41,521 nt of DNA from an uncultured Candidatus Saccharibacteria bacterium (GCA_964479775.1 CAYZNH010000002.1:1-41521), one strand, 5' to 3'; shown: positions 195 through 39,610, numbered from the stretch's first letter. The notes: generated by a model not told the origin, from the letters alone. A program made the numbers and translations.

Positions 195-509
195 TTATTT
201 TATACTCTTTTTTACTACTCCAACAACTGCATCAAAATCATCACCTTTTTCAACTTCTTTTCTTTTTTCAAAATTACACTTAACACATTTATGAGTAATC
301 ATATATCTACCTTTTTCAAATTCTACTTTAACAGGCATCATCATACCACCACAGTCAGCGAGTCTATCTCCAGGGTTAATATCTAAATGTTTACTCCAAA
401 GACATTTTGAACAATGATTAGTAAAACCAGTCCCCCTCATAAGGTTTCCACATTTTTCACAAATAAAGTCTTCTATTCTTTTTTGAAACTTTTTCGGTTG
501 ATTGGTCAT
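195..509 (-). CDS. RNHCP-domain zinc-ribbon protein
   Basis: 104 aa ORF with paired Cys motifs: CEKCG, (T)NHCSKCLWSKHLDINPGDR, CGGMM and CVKCN. The pattern matches what I recall of the RNHCP domain family (R-N-H-C-P core, here T-N-H-C-S). Confidence 0.6.
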   Translation of the reverse strand: MTNQPKKFQKRIEDFICEKCGNLMRGTGFTNHCSKCLWSKHLDINPGDRLADCGGMMMPVKVEFEKGRYMITHKCVKCNFEKRKEVEKGDDFDAVVGVVKKSIK

Positions 510-584
510 GAAATGAGATTATAAATATATAATACATTAATAAAGGAAATTATCTACTAAGAGATTTTAATTAAACGATTACGA

Positions 585-773
585 TTTTTCAAACTTCGGG
601 GCCCATCCCGAAATTTGAAACGGCGACGGACGAAATACAGTGACGGGACTGTGAGTACACTTTTCGATCCTTACAGGATCAGTACCCCGATTGGATATTT
701 TGTTTCGATTCTCTCACAAAATATGCTCAATCGGGCTTCGAATCCCGGACGAGAGCAAATACTTTTGCTCTCT
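585..773 (-). repeat. Repeat family 1, copy A (candidate structured ncRNA downstream of tRNA-Pro)
   Basis: Read on the minus strand it aligns with 4095-4290 and partly with 22640-22790. Shared blocks are AGCAAAAGTATTT, CGAAGCCC-ATTGAG, ATCCAAT and a CTGTAAG-loop hairpin. Stems: cccgattg (735-728) / caatcggg (693-686), atattttgt/acaaaatat, gatcc-tgtaa-ggatc (680-666). Confidence 0.7.
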
Positions 774-831
774 CACTCCGACACAAATTAAAAAATAGCC
801 CTAAAGCTATTTTTTAATTTGTGTCGGAGTG
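774..831. repeat. Perfect 26-bp inverted repeat (6-nt loop) whose right arm contains the tRNA-Pro 3' acceptor strand
   Basis: cactccgacacaaattaaaaaatagc (774-799), loop cctaaa, gctattttttaatttgtgtcggagtg (806-831). Positions 824-831 are the acceptor 3' strand plus discriminator of tRNA-Pro. Probably also serves as its terminator. Confidence 0.85.
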
Positions 832-894
832 CCGGGATTCGAACCCGGATCGCATGCTCCCAAAGCACGAATGCTACCGTTACACTACACTCCG
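824..894 (-). tRNA. tRNA-Pro (anticodon UGG), CCA not encoded
   Basis: Reverse complement: acceptor CGGAGTG/CACTCCG, anticodon arm CGTGC-TTTGGGA-GCATG (UGG with G37), T arm CCGGG-TTCGAAT-CCCGG. Confidence 0.9.
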
Positions 895-947
895 ATGAAT
901 TCCTAGCTTATCATAAAATATTTAAGTAAGCTAGGAATATTAAATTA

Positions 948-2111
948 TTATTCTACATTACCATCCATACGATTAATCACATTAATAGCACACTGATAAT
1001 CAGTTTGATTATCAATCGGAATATCATTATTTGGTAAAGGTATTCCAAATGAATTAACACAATCACTAGAAAAAACATTAGAAAAAACACAAAACATTTG
1101 ATTAATATTTATATAATAATAAGCACCACCTAACCCTTCACAAATGGATGGTTCCCAAACTGAACTAGGAGGAATAAAACCTTTTGACAATGTTCCAGCA
1201 CAATAACAAGGTGAAGGTAATTCTTCAAAAGGAACATTTGGACAAGATAACAAAATATCTCCCTCTGAACAATCAGAATAAATAATTTGGGTACAAATAT
1301 TATCATTCCATTCTCTACCATTAGATAAACAAGTGACATAATCAAAACAAATCAAATCTAATTCATCCCAATATAAACCATATTCTACCTTGCATTCATT
1401 TTGTGGTAAAGAATCTGGATTAATATTATTTAAAGTACCATTACAATAACAATTAAAAGTCATTATTTGGTCTGGACAAATTTTGTCTATATCGACAATC
1501 AAACAACTTGATATATCATCTACATCATCAATAATATCTCGTGAGACTCTACCACTCCTATGTCCACTCGTAACACCAATTATTTGATCATTCGAAGTGT
1601 TTGAAGAATCACAAGAAGGGAAAGTTATATCTACACCACCAGAAAATTGTTGATTAAATTCAGCTATTAAATTACATATATTAGATGCATCGATATCTCC
1701 AACAATAACACCAACTTTTTGAGGATTATTATCTGTTGTATATATAGTTTCATAAGTTGCACTAACTACAGCGACTGGTTTACCACCAACCGTTCCTTTT
1801 CTAAAACTATATGAGCTACCTGTTTTAGGATCTTTAGGTTCTGCAGATAAATAACCTGCACCGACAAGAGTCTTACTGGAATCAATACCTGTTGATATAC
1901 CGATACTTTCAGGTAATTCTCCCTTGTCCTCATAATACATAGTCGTTGCTGTATTTATTTGCTTCATATCTGAAAGCCTGATTGAATCACGAGATTTTGC
2001 ACGAGCTGAACCAATATAACTAAAGAAGATACTTGAAACCAAAGTAATAATAGATATTACCATCAAGAGTTCTATTAAAGTGAAACCTATTTTGTATTTT
2101 TTATTATACAT
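948..2111 (-). CDS. Type IV pilin-like protein with a large Cys-rich C-terminal domain
   Basis: Prepilin-type N-terminal cleavage/methylation motif MYNKKYKIG|FTLIELLMVISIITLV, followed by pilin-like SDMKQI. 387 aa. I count 18 Cys, all in the C-terminal part, with a duplicated CYC(N/A)GTL block. Confidence 0.85.
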   Translation of the reverse strand: MYNKKYKIGFTLIELLMVISIITLVSSIFFSYIGSARAKSRDSIRLSDMKQINTATTMYYEDKGELPESIGISTGIDSSKTLVGAGYLSAEPKDPKTGSSYSFRKGTVGGKPVAVVSATYETIYTTDNNPQKVGVIVGDIDASNICNLIAEFNQQFSGGVDITFPSCDSSNTSNDQIIGVTSGHRSGRVSRDIIDDVDDISSCLIVDIDKICPDQIMTFNCYCNGTLNNINPDSLPQNECKVEYGLYWDELDLICFDYVTCLSNGREWNDNICTQIIYSDCSEGDILLSCPNVPFEELPSPCYCAGTLSKGFIPPSSVWEPSICEGLGGAYYYININQMFCVFSNVFSSDCVNSFGIPLPNNDIPIDNQTDYQCAINVINRMDGNVE

Positions 2112-2177
2112 AACAAAAAATTTAAATTATTATTTATATAGATTATAACACATTCTATAAAAACTTATATAAATTAA

Positions 2178-3689
2178 TTATACCCTGTGACTTCTTCTTA
2201 TCATTTCAATCTCATCATCATTTTCCTCCTCTTTTTTCTTTTTTCCTTCCTCCCCAATTTTTCTTAATTCAGATTCTGGAAGTTTAATAAGTTCAATTGC
2301 TTTATTATTCAAATATTCTTCAGTATTTAATTTTGGATCGTCTAAAACCTCTTCAAGTAACGCATGTAAAACAAAGCCTACTTTTGGACCAGGTTTTTCA
2401 CCTGAAACCTCCATTATCTTTTTACCATCTATATTAAGCATCCCGACAGATATAGGATCTCTCGTGGCCTCATCTATCATTGCATGATATTTTCTAAGTC
2501 TATATGGATCCTCCTTTGGTCTCCCCATACCTATTCTATCGCAAACACGAACATTCATAAGATCCCAGATATTATCCTTCCCCACCCTTGCAACAATCCT
2601 TCTAACAGCAGAAAGACTTATCTGTTCTGTATCAGCAAAAAACATATGTAATCTAACAAGTTTAGTGACTTTTTCAATAACTTTCTTAGGATATCTCAAA
2701 TCTTGAAGTATCTTCTCTGTCATTCTAGCACCAACAACTTCATGCCCATAAAAACTCCATTCTTTTTTACCATTTTCACCCTCCCTCCTTGATTTTGGCT
2801 TTCCAATATCATGCAAAAGTGCCGTAAGTCTAACCTCTAAACTCCAATCTTTATCTGCGGCACACTGTAAAGCTCTCAGAGAGTGATCCCAAACATCATA
2901 TTTATGAGCACCCCCTTGTTCAATATTTATTGTTTTTTCAAGCTCTGGAATAATATATTTCAATAAACCAAATTTTTGACACGATTTTAAACCCTGCATT
3001 GGCTCACTAGACATAATTATTTTTGTAAATTCATCACGAATTCTTTCTTTTGCTATCTTAGAAAGAAGATGAGATTCTTCAAACAAAGCTTTTTCAGTTT
3101 CACTATCAATTTCAAAACCAACATAATTCCCTATTCTTACAGCACGCAAAATTCTAAGTCCATCTTCATTAAATCTCTCTCTTGGATTTCCAACTGTCCT
3201 TATAATCTTATTTTTTAAATCTTCTTGTCCTTTATAAAGATCAAATATTTGTCCTTTATAAAAATCATCCTTTTCCACTTTTTCTTTTATATCTAAAGCT
3301 ATAGCATTTATAGTAAAATCCCTTCTTTTAAGGTCATCTTCTAACTTATCACTAAATGAAACACTATCTGGTCTTCTATTATCAGAATATTCTGATTCAA
3401 GTCTATACGGTGTTATTTCAACAACCTTAAGAGTTTCATCTGAAACATCTTCATTAACAACACCAACTGTTCCATAAGTATTTTCATAAAAAGTATCTGG
3501 AAAAGTAGCAATAATATCTTCTGGCTTAGCATTCGTAGTAATATCCCAATCTTTTGGTTTAATACCGAGAATAATATCTCTCACACAACCACCAATAAGA
3601 TATGACTCAAAACCAGCTTCTTTAAGCCTCTGTGATGTTTCATATATCACTTTTGGTATTGGACCGTATTCTAATTCCTTTTGTTTCAT
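2178..3689 (-). CDS. cca: CCA-adding enzyme (tRNA nucleotidyltransferase) with HD domain
   Basis: GGCVRDIILGIKPKDWDITT, RDFTINAIA and the HD motif LLHDIGKP. Consistent with the tRNA genes here lacking an encoded CCA. Confidence 0.93.
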   Translation of the reverse strand: MKQKELEYGPIPKVIYETSQRLKEAGFESYLIGGCVRDIILGIKPKDWDITTNAKPEDIIATFPDTFYENTYGTVGVVNEDVSDETLKVVEITPYRLESEYSDNRRPDSVSFSDKLEDDLKRRDFTINAIALDIKEKVEKDDFYKGQIFDLYKGQEDLKNKIIRTVGNPRERFNEDGLRILRAVRIGNYVGFEIDSETEKALFEESHLLSKIAKERIRDEFTKIIMSSEPMQGLKSCQKFGLLKYIIPELEKTINIEQGGAHKYDVWDHSLRALQCAADKDWSLEVRLTALLHDIGKPKSRREGENGKKEWSFYGHEVVGARMTEKILQDLRYPKKVIEKVTKLVRLHMFFADTEQISLSAVRRIVARVGKDNIWDLMNVRVCDRIGMGRPKEDPYRLRKYHAMIDEATRDPISVGMLNIDGKKIMEVSGEKPGPKVGFVLHALLEEVLDDPKLNTEEYLNNKAIELIKLPESELRKIGEEGKKKKEEENDDEIEMIRRSHRV

Positions 3690-3716
3690 AATAGTTAAAT
3701 GAAATTAATAATGTTG

Positions 3717-3788
3717 TGCGTCTGGTAGGAATCGAACCTACAATAACGGTTTCGAAGACCGTTGTGATATCCATTTCACCACAGACGC
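3717..3788 (-). tRNA. tRNA-Arg (anticodon UCG), CCA not encoded
   Basis: Reverse complement: acceptor GCGTCTG/CAGACGC, D arm GTGA-AATGGATA-TCAC, anticodon arm ACGGT-CTTCGAA-ACCGT, T arm GTAGG-TTCGATT-CCTAC. Confidence 0.9.
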
Positions 3789-3800
3789 AACTTTTTATGT

Positions 3801-3871
3801 TAAGACCGTTTGTGATATTTACCCGTTCAAATTTTAATAAATTTGTTCGGGTCCATTTCACCACAAGCGTA
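3801..3871 (-). pseudogene. Degenerate copy of the 5' half of tRNA-Arg, interrupted by a 32-nt palindrome
   Basis: taagaccgtttgtgatattt (3801-3820) and ccatttcaccacaagcgta (3853-3871) parallel gaagaccgttgtgatat/ccatttcaccacagacgca of the intact gene. They are split by acccgttcaaattttaataaatttgttcgggt (3821-3852). Confidence 0.6.
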
Positions 3872-3965
3872 TAACGAGTATATAATACGCTAAAATATAC
3901 AAAAATGAAACCGAAAACTTTGATATTTTTATTTTTTGTGTATAATATATTGAACAAATATTTTT

Positions 3966-4036
3966 GCGGGCGTGGTTTAATGGTAGAACTAGTCCTTGCC
4001 AAGGATTGGGTCCGGGTTCGATTCCCGGCGTCCGCA
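3966..4036 (+). tRNA. tRNA-Gly (anticodon GCC), CCA not encoded
   Basis: Acceptor GCGGGCG/CGTCCGC, D arm GTTT-AATGGTA-GAAC, anticodon arm AGTCC-TTGCCAA-GGATT, T arm CCGGG-TTCGATT-CCCGG. Confidence 0.9.
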
Positions 4037-4089
4037 CATAATAAATATAACCTATAAATACTATGGGTTATTTTTATTATGTGCGGACG
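4029..4089. repeat. 17-bp perfect inverted repeat (with nested inner stem) whose left arm is the tRNA-Gly(GCC) 3' acceptor strand
   Basis: cgtccgcacataataaa (4029-4045) pairs with tttattatgtgcggacg (4073-4089). Inner stem is ataacc/ggttat. It has the same architecture as 774-831. Confidence 0.85.
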
Positions 4090-4094
4090 CAATA

Positions 4095-4290
4095 AGCAAA
4101 AGTATTTATTTATGTCGGAAATCGAAGCCCAATTGAGTCTATTTTACAAATATAATGAAGTAAAATATCCAATCGTGGTACTTATTCTGTAAGAATCGAT
4201 AAATGTGCTCATGGTCCCCAAGATTTCGTCTCATTAACATTTTTGGTCTGGATTTGGTCCCTAGGAGAAAAAATTTTGTACTCATAGTCC
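4095..4290 (+). repeat. Repeat family 1, copy B (candidate structured ncRNA downstream of tRNA-Gly)
   Basis: agcaaaagtattt...cgaagcccaattgag...tattttac/gtaaaata...atccaatcgtgg...attc-tgtaa-gaat (4184-4196)...gtgctcatggtcc. Collinear with copy A on the opposite strand. Confidence 0.7.
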
Positions 4291-4478
4291 TCTGGCTGAG
4301 TTCGTAGTTTTTATAAAAAGTTTCAAGTTTGTATAAAAGCCTAAAGGATAAAATGCTCATCTTCTTTTTATTATCAGACACATCCCGATTAATCAGACAT
4401 ATAACAACATCATAATTATACAAAAGGAATATTTTTTCTAAATCTATCCTTTCTAATTAATAGTTTTTAAAATAAAAC

Positions 4479-8607: not shown

Positions 8608-8641
8608 AAAAAGGATTTTCGCTTCGCGAAAATCCTTTTTA
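8608..8641. terminator. Bidirectional hairpin terminator; its arms are identical to the arms of repeat family 4 copy F1
   Basis: aaaaaggattttcgc-ttc-gcgaaaatccttttt lies between convergent genes. Confidence 0.8.
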
Positions 8642-8666
8642 TCTATTTTTAGTATTTAATTCGTGA

Positions 8667-9650
8667 TTATTCTGCATCCTGTCCACGTCTGTCATGAAAT
8701 TTCTTGTGTACATCCCTTAGATGTTTATCAGTAACGTGTGTATAAATCTGTGTAGTAGCTATATTTGAGTGACCCAGCATCATCTGAACAGAACGAATAT
8801 CCGCACCATTTGAAAGTAAGTCGGTAGCAAAACAATGTCTAATAACGTGTGGTGTAACTTTCTTTGTTATACCTGCGATTGTTGCATACTTTTTTACAAT
8901 TCTTTCTATTGTTCGGTGATCAAGCCCTGTAGAATATTCTTTCTTTTCAAAGATTTCTTTTTTATCTGAATTTTTCTTATCTGAACTAACCGGCACAAAC
9001 ATTGCATCAGACATATCTTTTCTTAAATCAAGATATTCTTTAATGGCTTTTTTTGCTTCACTAGAAAGAAATACTACTCTAACTTTTCCACCCTTACCAC
9101 GAATAGAAAACTCATCCATGTGTAAATCTAAATCATTTTTCAATGAGCATAATTCCGAGACACGAAGTCCTGTAGAAAAAAGTAATTCCAAAATTGCCTT
9201 ATCACGAGCTCGTCTCTCTGAATTTTGTTCTTTATCTGGTGCTTCTAACAAACGTTTAAGTTCAAACGGAGAAACAACATCGATTGTTCTTTCATTAACT
9301 TTTGCAAGTTCTATATTTTCAGCCGAAAGAGAATTGATACCGCGACGAGTTAGAAACTTAAGAAAAGTTCTAATTGCAATCATATAATAATTTTGCGTTC
9401 TTTTGTTCATATATCCACCAGACGGAGCTTTCTGATCAAAAAGGTGATAACCCTTGGCTCCAGGTCTTCTATTTAACCAAACACGAAATTCCCTAACTTT
9501 CTCATTTGTTATATCTTTTGGGTCTTTTAATCCTGTTTGTTCTAAAAAAACACTCAAATAATGATCATAATTTTCAATAGTCCTTATGGCACGACCCCTT
9601 TCTATTTCCAAATATTCCAAGAACTGTCTTTTTAAATCAAGTAAATTCAT
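8667..9650 (-). CDS. Tyrosine recombinase, XerC/XerD-like, with lineage-specific insertions
   Basis: TGLRVSEL (box I Arg), GKGGKVRVV, HVIRHCFATDLL, LGHSNIATTQIYTHV (catalytic Tyr). There is an extra Lys-rich segment SSDKKNSDKKEIFEKKEYSTG before box II. Confidence 0.9.
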   Translation of the reverse strand: MNLLDLKRQFLEYLEIERGRAIRTIENYDHYLSVFLEQTGLKDPKDITNEKVREFRVWLNRRPGAKGYHLFDQKAPSGGYMNKRTQNYYMIAIRTFLKFLTRRGINSLSAENIELAKVNERTIDVVSPFELKRLLEAPDKEQNSERRARDKAILELLFSTGLRVSELCSLKNDLDLHMDEFSIRGKGGKVRVVFLSSEAKKAIKEYLDLRKDMSDAMFVPVSSDKKNSDKKEIFEKKEYSTGLDHRTIERIVKKYATIAGITKKVTPHVIRHCFATDLLSNGADIRSVQMMLGHSNIATTQIYTHVTDKHLRDVHKKFHDRRGQDAE

Positions 9651-10951: not shown

Positions 10952-10996
10952 ATAATGTTGTAGATGTTTTAATTGTAAATACAATAAAACACAAAG

Positions 10997-11053
10997 AGGA
11001 TTTTCGCAACCTAAAACAAAGATTACTTTGTTCGGTCAAGGAGCGAAAATCCT
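10997..11053 (-). repeat. Repeat family 4, copy F1 (conserved ~35-nt palindromic core nested in a terminator stem), inverted relative to F2/F3
   Basis: aggattttcgc[aacctaaaacaaagattactttgttcggtcaagga]gcgaaaatcct. The arms equal the plain terminator at 8612-8636. Confidence 0.8.
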
Positions 11054-11704: not shown

Positions 11705-11761
11705 GGGATTTTTGCTTCCTGACCGAACAAAGTAGTCTTTGTTTTAGGTCGCAAAAATCCC
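11705..11761 (+). repeat. Repeat family 4, copy F2
   Basis: gggatttttgc[ttcctgaccgaacaaagtagtctttgttttaggtc]gcaaaaatccc followed by a T-run. Confidence 0.8.
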
Positions 11762-11764
11762 TTT

Positions 11765-11870
11765 TGTATTGTCATTCCGTTGAAAAACGGAATCCATGTT
11801 TGATTTTAATTAATGGATTCCGGCCTCCGCCGAAATGACACAACTACAACAATTACAACATCTATAACAG
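11765..11870 (+). repeat. Repeat family 3, expanded copy (TGTATTGTCATTCC...GAAATGACACAA plus an ACAA-rich tail)
   Basis: tgtattgtcattcc...nested hairpins attccg/cggaat and ggaatccat/atggattcc...gaaatgacacaactacaacaattacaacatctataaca. The tail parallels 22816-22852. Confidence 0.65.
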
Positions 11871-12008
11871 TTAAAACATAGGTATTTTTCTATATTCCAC
11901 ATTCACTATTCAATATTCTAATTCACGGGCTTGCTTGCAAGAGAGAGAGAGAGAGTAAAATACAAATATTGGAAACAACTCCAATTTTAATAATTAATTA
12001 TAAACATT

Positions 12009-12749: not shown

Positions 12750-12815
12750 AAAGGCGGAAAATTGCTTCTGACCGAACAAAGTAATCTTTGTTTTAGGTCG
12801 CAATTTTCCGCCTTT
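12750..12815 (+). repeat. Repeat family 4, copy F3
   Basis: aaaggcggaaaattgc[ttctgaccgaacaaagtaatctttgttttaggtc]gcaattttccgccttt. Confidence 0.8.
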
Positions 12816-22480: not shown

Positions 22481-22634
22481 GGCTCGCTCGTATTTGTTTT
22501 CTAAAAGCACGATAAAACTGCCGTCAGTCACGGCAGTTTTTCTCTACTCAATAAATTTGTTGCTACAAATTTATTTCCGTAAGGCTTTTAGAAAGCAAAT
22601 ACTCGCTCGCTAGTGAAAAATACAAATACAAAAG
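22481..22634 (+). repeat. Repeat family 2, copy D1 (three-hairpin element abutting the pcrA stop codon; contains a terminator hairpin)
   Basis: Closing stem gtatttgttttctaaaagc (22490-22508) / gcttttagaaagcaaatac (22584-22602). Inner hairpins actgccg-tcagtca-cggcagt+TTTT and aataaatttgt-tgc-tacaaatttatt. Conserved linkers AGCACGATA, TTCTCTACTCA and TTCCGTAAGGC. Tail GCTAGTGAAAAATACAAATACAAAAG. Confidence 0.8.
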
Positions 22635-22639
22635 ACTTG

Positions 22640-22790
22640 CCTCGAGAGATAGTATTTTTTCTGTCATTACGAGGTGGGTGTTGGGATGGGACCCAACACG
22701 CAAGACTCATTGAGAGCTTTTGTAATCAAAAGATCCAATGAGTGGACAGTCTCTGTAAGAGAGTAATCCGACGTGGTAATCCAGTGTTTT
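22640..22790 (+). repeat. Repeat family 1, short copy C
   Basis: actcattg (22705-22712) / caatgagt (22736-22743) enclose GAG-cttttg-taat-caaaag-ATC, followed by the tctc-tgtaa-gaga hairpin (22750-22762). An upstream hairpin is gtgttggg/cccaacac. Confidence 0.65.
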
Positions 22791-22852
22791 GTATTGTCAT
22801 TCCCGCGTAGGCGGGAATGACACAAATACAATAACTACAACATTTATAACAC
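22791..22852 (+). repeat. Repeat family 3, compact copy
   Basis: gtattgtcattcccgcgtaggcgggaatgacacaaatacaataactacaacatttataacac. The ATTCCC-N8-GGGAAT core is at 22799-22818. It lies about 40 nt upstream of rsmA. Confidence 0.7.
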
Positions 22853-22892
22853 ATAGAACTTTTAGCTATTCTATAGTATATTTAAACTACAA

Positions 22893-39458: not shown

Positions 39459-39610
39459 AGCTCGCTTACAGAGTGTTTTGAAAGCACGATATAAATTTTT
39501 TCGTCAAAAAAGTTATTCTCTACTCACTAAATTTTCTACTGAAAATTTCGTTCCGTAAGGCTTTCAAAACACACAGCTTCGCTTGCTAGTGAAAAATACA
39601 AATACAAAAG
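39459..39610 (+). repeat. Repeat family 2, copy D2 (abuts the dnaN stop codon)
   Basis: Closing stem gtgttttgaaagc (39473-39485) / gctttcaaaacac (39560-39572). Inner hairpins aaattttttc-g-tcaaaaaagtt and aaattttc-tac-tgaaaattt. Same linkers and same 26-nt tail as D1. Confidence 0.8.

Follow-up and report, generated by a model that had tools for sequence, protein, structure and literature searches.

What is the element that occurs three times in a stretch of 41,521 nucleotides (nt) of DNA from an uncultured Candidatus Saccharibacteria bacterium (GCA_964479775.1 CAYZNH010000002.1:1-41521; the whole stretch is called the window below), twice downstream of a transfer RNA (tRNA) gene and once at a third locus? 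An earlier note on the window had described the three copies, here named A, B and C, had seen compensatory changes in three of their helices, and had recognised no named RNA family in them. We find that all three are members of a family of small folded RNA modules that had not been catalogued before, occurs in multiple copies and is widespread in Paceibacteria. In kind, it is either a tRNA-operon-borne repeat RNA or an orphan structured RNA. The family combines structural constraint at the level of single loci with a repeat-like turnover, and it is unusual in its anatomy, with a conserved module set in a frame that was copied from the tRNA next to it.

The window has a G+C content of ~30%. The sequence blocks ATTGAG, ATCCAAT and CTGTAAG, which had been singled out as common to the copies, are real and lie far above chance expectation. 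Specifically, the pattern ATTGAG-N(8-38)-ATCCAAT matched three times against 0.17 matches expected by chance, and ATCCAAT-N(8-30)-CTGTAAG matched three times against 0.00 expected, with a spacing of 13 nt between ATCCAAT and CTGTAAG. Both patterns land on the same three sites. A covariance model of the shared core likewise found exactly three sites, at the places given in the earlier note, and the next best match in the window reached 16 bits:

666-739, minus strand: core of copy A (covariance-model score 86.8 bits)
22701-22763, plus strand: core of copy C (62.7 bits)
4124-4197, plus strand: core of copy B (61.7 bits)

The functional extents of the copies are approximately 587-831 (A), 4030-4232 (B) and 22665-22782 (C). 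As had been proposed, copies A and B align collinearly, from the loop of a 5' hairpin through ~20 nt beyond the core, and are roughly 80% alike along this shared stretch; copy C has only the core in common with them. Compared to shuffled sequence, a strongly stable fold was obtained for copies A (z = -6.1) and C (z = -8.1). Copy B folds no better than its shuffles (z = 0.11) and carries mismatches in the helices P2 and P3 described below, which bears out its earlier description as imperfect.

Species-representative contigs (one genome per species) were scanned with the exact pattern ATTGAG-N(8-38)-ATCCAAT-NNNNGNAC-NNNNN-CTGTAAG. The scan returned at least 117 stretches, and several genomes contained two or three matches. 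Among the matches listed, every record title was that of a Patescibacteria-group or unclassified metagenome-assembled genome (MAG), with the labels Paceibacterota, Parcubacteria, Taylor-, Kaiser-, Nomura-, Zambryski- and Ryanbacteria as well as several 'uncultured Saccharibacteria'. The closest relatives of the window itself are MAGs labelled Candidatus Pacebacteria/Paceibacterota, whose CCA enzyme is up to 91% identical. With the 4227 models of Rfam 15, no family was found at gathering score (only four tRNAs reach it in the window), and at E ≤ 10 nothing overlaps the three cores. In viral contigs, a looser pattern gave two chance matches that lack the helices, and a BLAST search of phages matched only the tRNA-Pro part of the query. 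Furthermore, full-text literature searches found no description of this element.

The unit common to all three window copies is a module of ~73 nt, referred to as M. It consists, in order, of a junction strand (G/C)AAG, the 8-bp helix P2, a bulged A, a variable hairpin P2a, a strand G-KAC-NG, and P3, a 5-bp hairpin with a UGUAA loop. A covariance model of 73 positions (R1) was built from 34 equal-length copies and finds 124 copies in the first 100 sources of the pattern scan; covariation was measured on these. The helices are established by this comparison. In total, 93.6% of the pair cells form a standard pair, compared to 72% in shuffles and 36-53% when the partners are slid, and 21 of the 22 pairs show changes on both sides, compared to 13.4 in shuffles. 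The compensatory changes noticed in all three helices, and the helices themselves, are real. The earlier note had named a lack of covariation in further homologues, or an explanatory match to Rfam or to an insertion-sequence (IS) end, as grounds for giving up its interpretation; covariation across the added homologues was strong, and no such match was found.

Eighteen copies lie outside the search pattern and are free of the ascertainment that it brings. In these copies, AUUG/CAAU is a helix that varies as UUUUG/CAAAA, UGUG/CACA and GAUG/CAUC, and the loop-closing pair of CUGUAAG covaries as C-G, G-C, A-U and U-A. The loop had therefore been drawn correctly as a UGUAA pentaloop, as C and G at the two ends of CTGTAAG pair with each other. 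For the same reason, a mimic of an anticodon arm, in which CUGUAAG would be a 7-nt loop with the anticodon GUA (Tyr), was rejected. A kink-turn (K-turn) was also rejected at both candidate positions: the second strand of the P2 internal loop has no GA, and the tip of P2a has tandem G-A pairs yet no 3-nt bulge. The fixed features of M are a G-(bulged A)-G opposite C-C in P2, the UGUAA loop, and the strands R-AAG and G-KAC-NG.

The helices contain 101 G-U pairs compared to 18 A-C. With G-U in such excess, the tRNA-sense strand is the folding strand. The excess favours one folded strand, either RNA or single-stranded DNA.

M has a compact fold around a junction whose strands are invariant, it probably makes a tertiary contact between loop and helix, and it is present in multiple copies and in varied contexts, as small ribozymes are. 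These traits could also mean that M is a new catalytic or ligand-binding RNA, that is, a self-cleaving ribozyme or an aptamer, which the tRNA-like frame described below merely delivers. We regard this as improbable. No Rfam ribozyme or riboswitch model, including hammerhead, twister, pistol, hatchet and hepatitis delta virus (HDV)-like models, matched at E ≤ 10, and no gene association hints at a ligand. A hammerhead core was considered separately and rejected, as the junction strands (4, 5 and 0 nt) do not map onto CUGANGA / GAA / H and Rfam gave no match. In favour of a ribozyme, there is a precedent beside tRNAs: theta ribozymes, which are minimal HDV-like ribozymes, are reported to adjoin phage tRNAs, and such small structured RNAs beside tRNA genes occur in many copies, as M does (PMC10879173). 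M differs from them in having neither an HDV-like fold nor an Rfam match, and it was not found in viral contigs. It lies 35-250 nt from the tRNA end within a tRNA-like frame and not immediately at the tRNA. Any catalysis by M would be hypothetical.

The copies fall into two architectures, counted here as the pattern matches listed. Type 1 (82 matches, including copies A and B) has M as a three-way junction, and type 2 (43 matches, including copy C) has a four-way junction. A same-strand tRNA lies within 250 nt upstream of 59 type-1 copies. As 12 of the other 23 are too near the end of their locus to be judged, this corresponds to 59 of 70 testable copies (84%). The tRNA linkage is thereby established well beyond the window, where copies A and B had been seen to follow a tRNA gene of the same sense and indeed follow tRNA-Pro(TGG) and tRNA-Gly(GCC), respectively. 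The upstream tRNAs of type-1 copies have 12 amino-acid identities, and the distance from tRNA to M is 35-250 nt, with a gap of typically 60-100 nt.

The flanks of type-1 modules are derived from the tRNA. On the 3' side, the sequence after P3 repeats the final ~21 nt of the tRNA; the repeat begins with the first base of the T-loop, reaches the 3' end and often extends into the trailer. A match score of at least 15 was reached in 33 of the 59 copies, the match starting at the T-loop, and such copies of tRNA 3' ends, 15-33 nt long, flank the type-1 units. On the 5' side, the order is a copy of the acceptor 5' strand, a hairpin H, the T-stem 5' strand, and the complement of the T-loop. The acceptor 5' strand copy was found in 24 of 53 cases (45%), compared to 10% in the control. 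The helix P1, whose 5' strand comprises the T-stem strand and the T-loop complement, is more stable when each strand keeps its own partner than after the partners are swapped (median -13.4 versus -10.5 kcal/mol, P = 2.7e-10). Similarly, the anti-T-loop strand of P1 covaries with the local T-loop (AATCGA/TCGATT, ACTCGA/TCGAGT, ACTTGA/TCAAGT). Minimum-free-energy folds and RNAalifold agree on a terminator-like hairpin, H, P1, P2/P2a and P3, in this order. A type-1 unit is thus a tRNA-like frame whose acceptor stem and T stem are copies of those of the neighbouring tRNA, with one hairpin in place of the D and anticodon arms and with M inserted at the T-loop. An acceptor stem stacked on a T stem, the mark of a tRNA-like structure, is present according to the acceptor copies, the P1 covariation and the folds. 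Neither ARAGORN nor the Rfam tRNA model calls the elements as tRNA; both a D arm and a 7-nt anticodon loop are missing.

In copy A, which is encoded on the minus strand throughout, the parts are as follows:

823-894, minus strand: tRNA-Pro(TGG), preceding copy A (ARAGORN and Rfam tRNA model)
774-831, minus strand: palindrome after tRNA-Pro, made of the acceptor 3' strand, a terminator-like hairpin rich in A/T, and the acceptor 5' copy (sequence)
774-780, minus strand: acceptor 5' strand copy cggagtg, the start of the tRNA-like frame (sequence)
751-772, minus strand: hairpin H, gagagc-AAAAGUAUUU-gctctc, at the place of the D and anticodon arms (folds)
740-748, minus strand: P1 5' strand, which copies the T-stem 5' strand of tRNA-Pro and adds the T-loop complement
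666-739, minus strand: module M, with GAAG, P2, bulged A, P2a hairpin, GUACU and P3
728-735 paired with 686-693, minus strand: P2; 666-680, minus strand: P3 with the UGUAA loop (covariance model and covariation)
637-665, minus strand: P1 3' strand, broken by a 14-nt mini-hairpin
649-662, minus strand: this mini-hairpin, GUG-UACU-CAC
637-648, minus strand: diverged copy of the tRNA-Pro T-stem 3' and acceptor 3' strand
587-621, minus strand: hairpin 3' of copy A, of a recurrent 'GGG-AUGG-GCCCC' type

The corresponding parts of copy B are:

3966-4037, plus strand: tRNA-Gly(GCC), preceding copy B (ARAGORN and Rfam tRNA model)
4030-4088, plus strand: palindrome after tRNA-Gly, consisting of the acceptor 3' strand, a hairpin and the acceptor 5' copy of copy B
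4091-4123, plus strand: hairpin H (4091-4111) and P1 5' strand (4116-4123)
4124-4197, plus strand: module M, partly decayed, with P2 and P3 mismatches (61.7 bits, fold z 0.11)
4198-4232, plus strand: 3' part, including a mini-hairpin at 4201-4214

The palindrome that had been reported in front of each of the two copies, containing the tRNA 3' end, is present at 774-831 and at 4030-4088 and is explained by the tRNA-like frame: it is composed of the acceptor 3' strand, the terminator-like hairpin and the element's own acceptor 5' copy. The terminator-like hairpin after tRNA-Pro was also recovered by RNAalifold in orthologues, and changes in the stem of hairpin H of copy A are compensated between orthologues. 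Copies A and B keep only a diverged or replaced tRNA 3'-end tail; the tail of copy B resembles that of copy A and not the 3' end of tRNA-Gly. A T-box-like UGGN pairing of the H loop with the tRNA 3' end was considered and rejected, as the loop UGGG(A/G) misfits the common discriminator A.

Direct repeats of tRNA 3' ends that begin at the T-loop, as in attachment (att) sites of the T-loop type, together with long perfect palindromes and local inversions, would be expected of an element acting at the DNA level, such as a palindrome like the repetitive extragenic palindromic (REP) sequences and bacterial interspersed mosaic elements (BIME), or a recombination site, e.g., att scars targeting tRNA T-loops. 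The strand-asymmetric pairing and the junction of several helices, with its conserved unpaired strands and specific loop, are RNA-like; these features and the almost constant location of type-1 copies on the tRNA strand make this quite improbable. Moreover, the T-stem 5' copy is parted from the T-loop by a 73-nt module, unlike in a simple attR, and the units are only 150-250 bp long and contain no integrase. The earlier statement that the copies share no open reading frame (ORF) was not contradicted.

Type-2 copies are arranged differently. A closing stem is followed by (G)GUGAG, a hairpin P1a, GCAAG, P2, GGACAG and P3. They occupy varied intergenic sites, mostly away from tRNAs, with a tRNA upstream of 6 and downstream of 3 of the 43 copies. 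Some lie within partial copies of the 5' part of a tRNA, after the D arm (loci L008, L037 and L069). A scan for known RNAs near 18 type-2 loci found only tRNAs and one 5S ribosomal RNA. The type-2 copy of the window comprises:

22665-22700, plus strand: 5' part of copy C, with the closing-stem 5' strand cattac, the linker GAGGUGG and hairpin P1a (22678-22699)
22701-22763, plus strand: module M (type 2), with CAAG, P2 actcattg/caatgagt, a short P2a, GGACAG and P3
22764-22782, plus strand: 3' part of copy C, with the closing-stem 3' strand ggtaatcc at 22775-22782

Each of the three window copies lies upstream of a same-strand gene (RNHCP, UPF0102 and KsgA), as a cis-acting leader, riboswitch or terminator for that gene would. 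This explanation is largely refuted, and we consider it very improbable. The downstream genes are unrelated both in the window and across 51 other loci, and only 22 of the 43 type-2 copies have a same-strand ORF within 450 nt. Furthermore, the orthologue of copy C in locus L077 is inverted between the same two genes. The neighbouring ORFs have an ordinary housekeeping look with no transposase-like genes among them, as judged by reading the translations by eye without a protein-family scan.

Conservation and turnover were followed in four syntenic loci (L120-L123), which were fetched by their CCA enzyme (91-81% identity). The two tRNA-linked sites compare as follows:

Window: A site present (86.8 bits); B site decayed (61.7 bits), tRNA-Gly(GCC) inverted relative to cca
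L120: A site present; B site absent, tRNA-Gly(GCC) co-oriented with cca
L121: tRNA-Pro inverted, scaffold kept and M missing at the A site; B site intact (76 bits), tRNA inverted
L122: A site present; B site absent, tRNA-Gly(GCC) co-oriented with cca
L123: A site present; B site decayed (18 bits), tRNA inverted

The orientation of the cca block is unchanged in all four relatives, and it is the individual tRNA-plus-element units that flip or are absent. The inverted arrangement of A and B around a block of pilin, cca and tRNA genes, to which the earlier note had drawn attention, consequently gives no evidence of a block inversion and has no demonstrated significance; an inversion of the 3.4-kb block between A and B was rejected as unsupported.

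Constraint is visible at the same loci. Among orthologous A copies from genomes with CCA enzymes 85-91% identical, two compensatory P2 pairs were found (CCCGAUUG/CAAUCGGG versus CCCCGUUG/CAACGGGG), and in the L123 orthologue the closing pair of P3 is swapped. The 14-nt mini-hairpin in the P1 3' strand covaries (GUG/CAC, AUG/CAU, GCG/CGC) and is present or absent among orthologues, being missing from those in L120 and L123. The L122 orthologue retains tcccggcactc, a copy of the tRNA-Pro 3' end. The orthologue of copy C lies in the same uvrD-ksgA spacer of L077, is inverted, and contains a 115-nt nested insertion in the P1a loop; the closing stems of the two covary (AUUAC/GUAAU versus AUUGCGA/UCGCAAU).

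Between close relatives, inversions affect single tRNA genes together with their promoters and leave the protein genes on either side in place. This was seen for tRNA-Gly(GCC) in the window, L121 and L123, and for tRNA-Pro in L121. L120, the relative with 91% identity, additionally carries a type-2 module at 8637-8699 (minus strand), on the opposite strand and just after tRNA-Gly(TCC) and its terminator; the equivalent site is beyond the left edge of the window.

The turnover raises the main rival, a selfish non-autonomous repeat, either like a miniature inverted-repeat transposable element (MITE) or spreading via an RNA intermediate, that inserts into the loops of tRNAs and hairpins. Its fold would then be kept only for recognition by the mobilising machinery and would bring the host no benefit. 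We judge this unlikely, although it deserves more weight than the rivals above. Consistent with such a repeat, the family is multi-copy, intergenic and mosaic, with tandem arrays (L014, L106) and inverted neighbours (L015, L069). Copies are present or absent between close relatives, and tRNA-plus-element units as well as copy C have been inverted. M sits at loop positions of partial tRNA copies, namely the T-loop in type 1 and the site after the D arm in the three type-2 loci named above, and the nested insertion in L077 and the long direct repeats of tRNA 3' ends around type-1 units fit the same picture. However, the ends of the element match each local tRNA and are not element-specific, which is unlike a fixed mobile sequence. 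In contrast to REP/BIME and MITE families, no element-specific terminal inverted repeats and no short target-site duplication were found, the pairing is strand-asymmetric, the multi-helix junction contains conserved unpaired nucleotides, and the orientation of type-1 modules is fixed relative to the tRNA. No mobility genes were seen among the neighbouring ORFs in the translations read, and the viral collection holds no real matches. There has been no recent burst, as the copies within this genome are old (A and B roughly 80% alike, C sharing the core only). Finally, the compensatory substitutions at orthologous copies speak against a selfish repeat.

A further possibility, to which we give little credence, is that M is an RNA-level parasite or catalytic module that is copied into the loops of structured RNAs and acquires a target-derived frame. 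The targets would be the T-loops of tRNAs, the position that follows the D arm, and the loops of hairpins, possibly reached by its own cleavage and ligation or by a lineage-specific enzyme. Copying of this kind would explain the match between scaffold and tRNA, the accompanying partial tRNA duplicates and the nested insertions.

Our tentative preference, held with somewhat less than even confidence, is that M is a functional RNA module presented by a natural tRNA scaffold, which would make it an analogue but not a homologue of the RtT RNA of Escherichia coli. The copies would be genes, or remnants of genes, of lineage-specific small structured RNAs built around M. The UGUAA loop agrees with the T-loop pattern (U-G-N-R-A) as well as with a GUAA loop of the GNRA-like kind, and GUAA loops prefer tandem C-G pairs. 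From these general traits we infer that P3 probably docks with its loop on P2, at the invariant patch G-(bulged A)-G / C-C. Such docking would align the two helices side by side and expose the strands R-AAG and G-KAC-NG as a working surface, whose partner would most likely be a protein of Paceibacteria and less likely a small ligand. In type 1, the scaffold would consist of the acceptor stem copy, one hairpin, and a T stem lengthened by pairing of the T-loop with its complementary strand. The unit would be transcribed in the sense of the tRNA, either by read-through or from an A/T-rich promoter that lies within the hairpin, and tRNA-processing enzymes may trim and stabilise it, by analogy with the RtT RNA of the E. 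coli tyrT operon. The tRNA-like frame would thereby give the RNA defined ends and stability. New copies would arise by local duplication and recombination through the tRNA-derived repeats, and individual copies would subsequently be kept (A), decay (B in the window) or be flipped.

Several observations weigh against this functional interpretation. Between the tRNA and most type-1 elements stands a hairpin with the look of a canonical terminator, so co-transcription with the tRNA would need read-through, and no clear promoter was found. With the T-loop paired in the scaffold, the tRNA elbow is absent, which RNase P, RNase Z and the CCA enzyme normally use. The turnover looks like that of a repeat family: copy B is absent in two of the four relatives and decayed in the window and L123, M is missing from the tRNA-Pro scaffold of L121, and the orthologue of copy C in L077 is inverted and interrupted. 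Moreover, function alone does not account for the exact match of the scaffold to the neighbouring tRNA.

The analogy with RtT was examined at the E. coli K-12 locus, where rttR has 171 nt and begins 7 nt after tyrV, and where the last of three 178-bp repeats overlaps the 3' end of tyrV. RtT is released from the tRNA operon transcript by processing. Both systems have, directly 3' of a same-strand tRNA gene, a small RNA unit which can be repeated in tandem, and in both the repeat overlaps the 3' part of the tRNA. The RtT model gave no match at E ≤ 10 over positions 500-4400, which makes the likeness an analogy and not a homology. Whereas RtT is tied to the enterobacterial tRNA-Tyr, the M family follows at least 12 tRNA identities across many Paceibacteria. 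It has a conserved junction module with strong covariation and rebuilds the whole frame of acceptor and T stems rather than a 3' tail alone.

Engineered tRNA scaffolds are used for recombinant RNAs, and natural tRNA-like processed RNAs such as mascRNA are known. Like these, M is a structured RNA inside a tRNA-like frame, and such a frame may be recognised by tRNA-processing enzymes and may shield its insert from nucleases. M differs in being placed at the T-loop (in some type-2 copies, behind the D arm) and not in the anticodon stem, in the single hairpin that stands for the D and anticodon arms, and in the paired T-loop; processing of M units is only predicted.

Should the module prove to be a host RNA, it would be the equivalent in nature of the engineered tRNA scaffold, and it would suggest that Paceibacteria have an RNA-binding partner of their own for it. 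Should it prove to be a selfish repeat, it would illustrate how repeats, partial duplications and local inversions originate from tRNA genes in very small genomes. The candidate phyla radiation (CPR, or Patescibacteria) makes up a large share of bacterial diversity, and to our knowledge almost none of its non-coding RNA has been charted beyond the universal RNAs. The family is abundant and well defined, with a secondary structure fixed by covariation, and is ready for a covariance model, an Rfam entry and biochemistry. Such a model would also aid annotation, as it would account for many of the 'empty' tRNA-adjacent spacers in CPR MAGs.

Several other repeats were observed in the window. Upstream of tRNA-Arg(TCG) (3716-3788), a partial duplicate of the 5' half of this tRNA (gcgcttgtggtgaaatgga...atatcacaaacggtctt) is located at 3789-3870 (minus strand), with a hairpin of ~30 nt inserted in its D-loop. 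It is absent at the same place in L120 and resembles the partial tRNA copies that host type-2 modules elsewhere. A 100-nt direct repeat (22535-22634 and 39511-39610, 82% identity) has its first copy directly upstream of copy C and its second in front of an unrelated short hairpin; it is absent beside the copy C orthologue in L077. A second repeat family is a nested hairpin of ~60 nt, ggattttcgc...ugaccgaacaaag-uagu-cuuuguuuuaggucg...gcgaaaatcc, found at 10993-11052, 11706-11770 and 12755-12815 with 85-97% identity, one of the three being inverted.

Hairpins of the form TTTTGTATTGTCATTCC-CGCGTAGGCG-GGAATGAC with ACAAATACAA-type tails occur at 105-139, 11762-11796 and 22787-22822, and a related repeat stretch links 11817-11877 and 22799-22859. 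One TTTTGTATTGTCATTCC-type hairpin directly follows copy C, and a syntenic one is found in L120 before tRNA-Gly(TCC). Compared with Rfam, these hairpins gave only a weak partial match, to FtrB. The recurrent hairpin NNNGGG-(A/U)UGG-G(A/C)CCCNNN occurs as a free hairpin 3' of copy A (587-621, minus strand) and as P1a of type-2 elements, including copy C (22678-22699, plus strand). In relatives (L077, L121), chains of such hairpins are found together with an 'aaauuuuc-AGCA-gaaaauu' hairpin, sometimes nested in one another.

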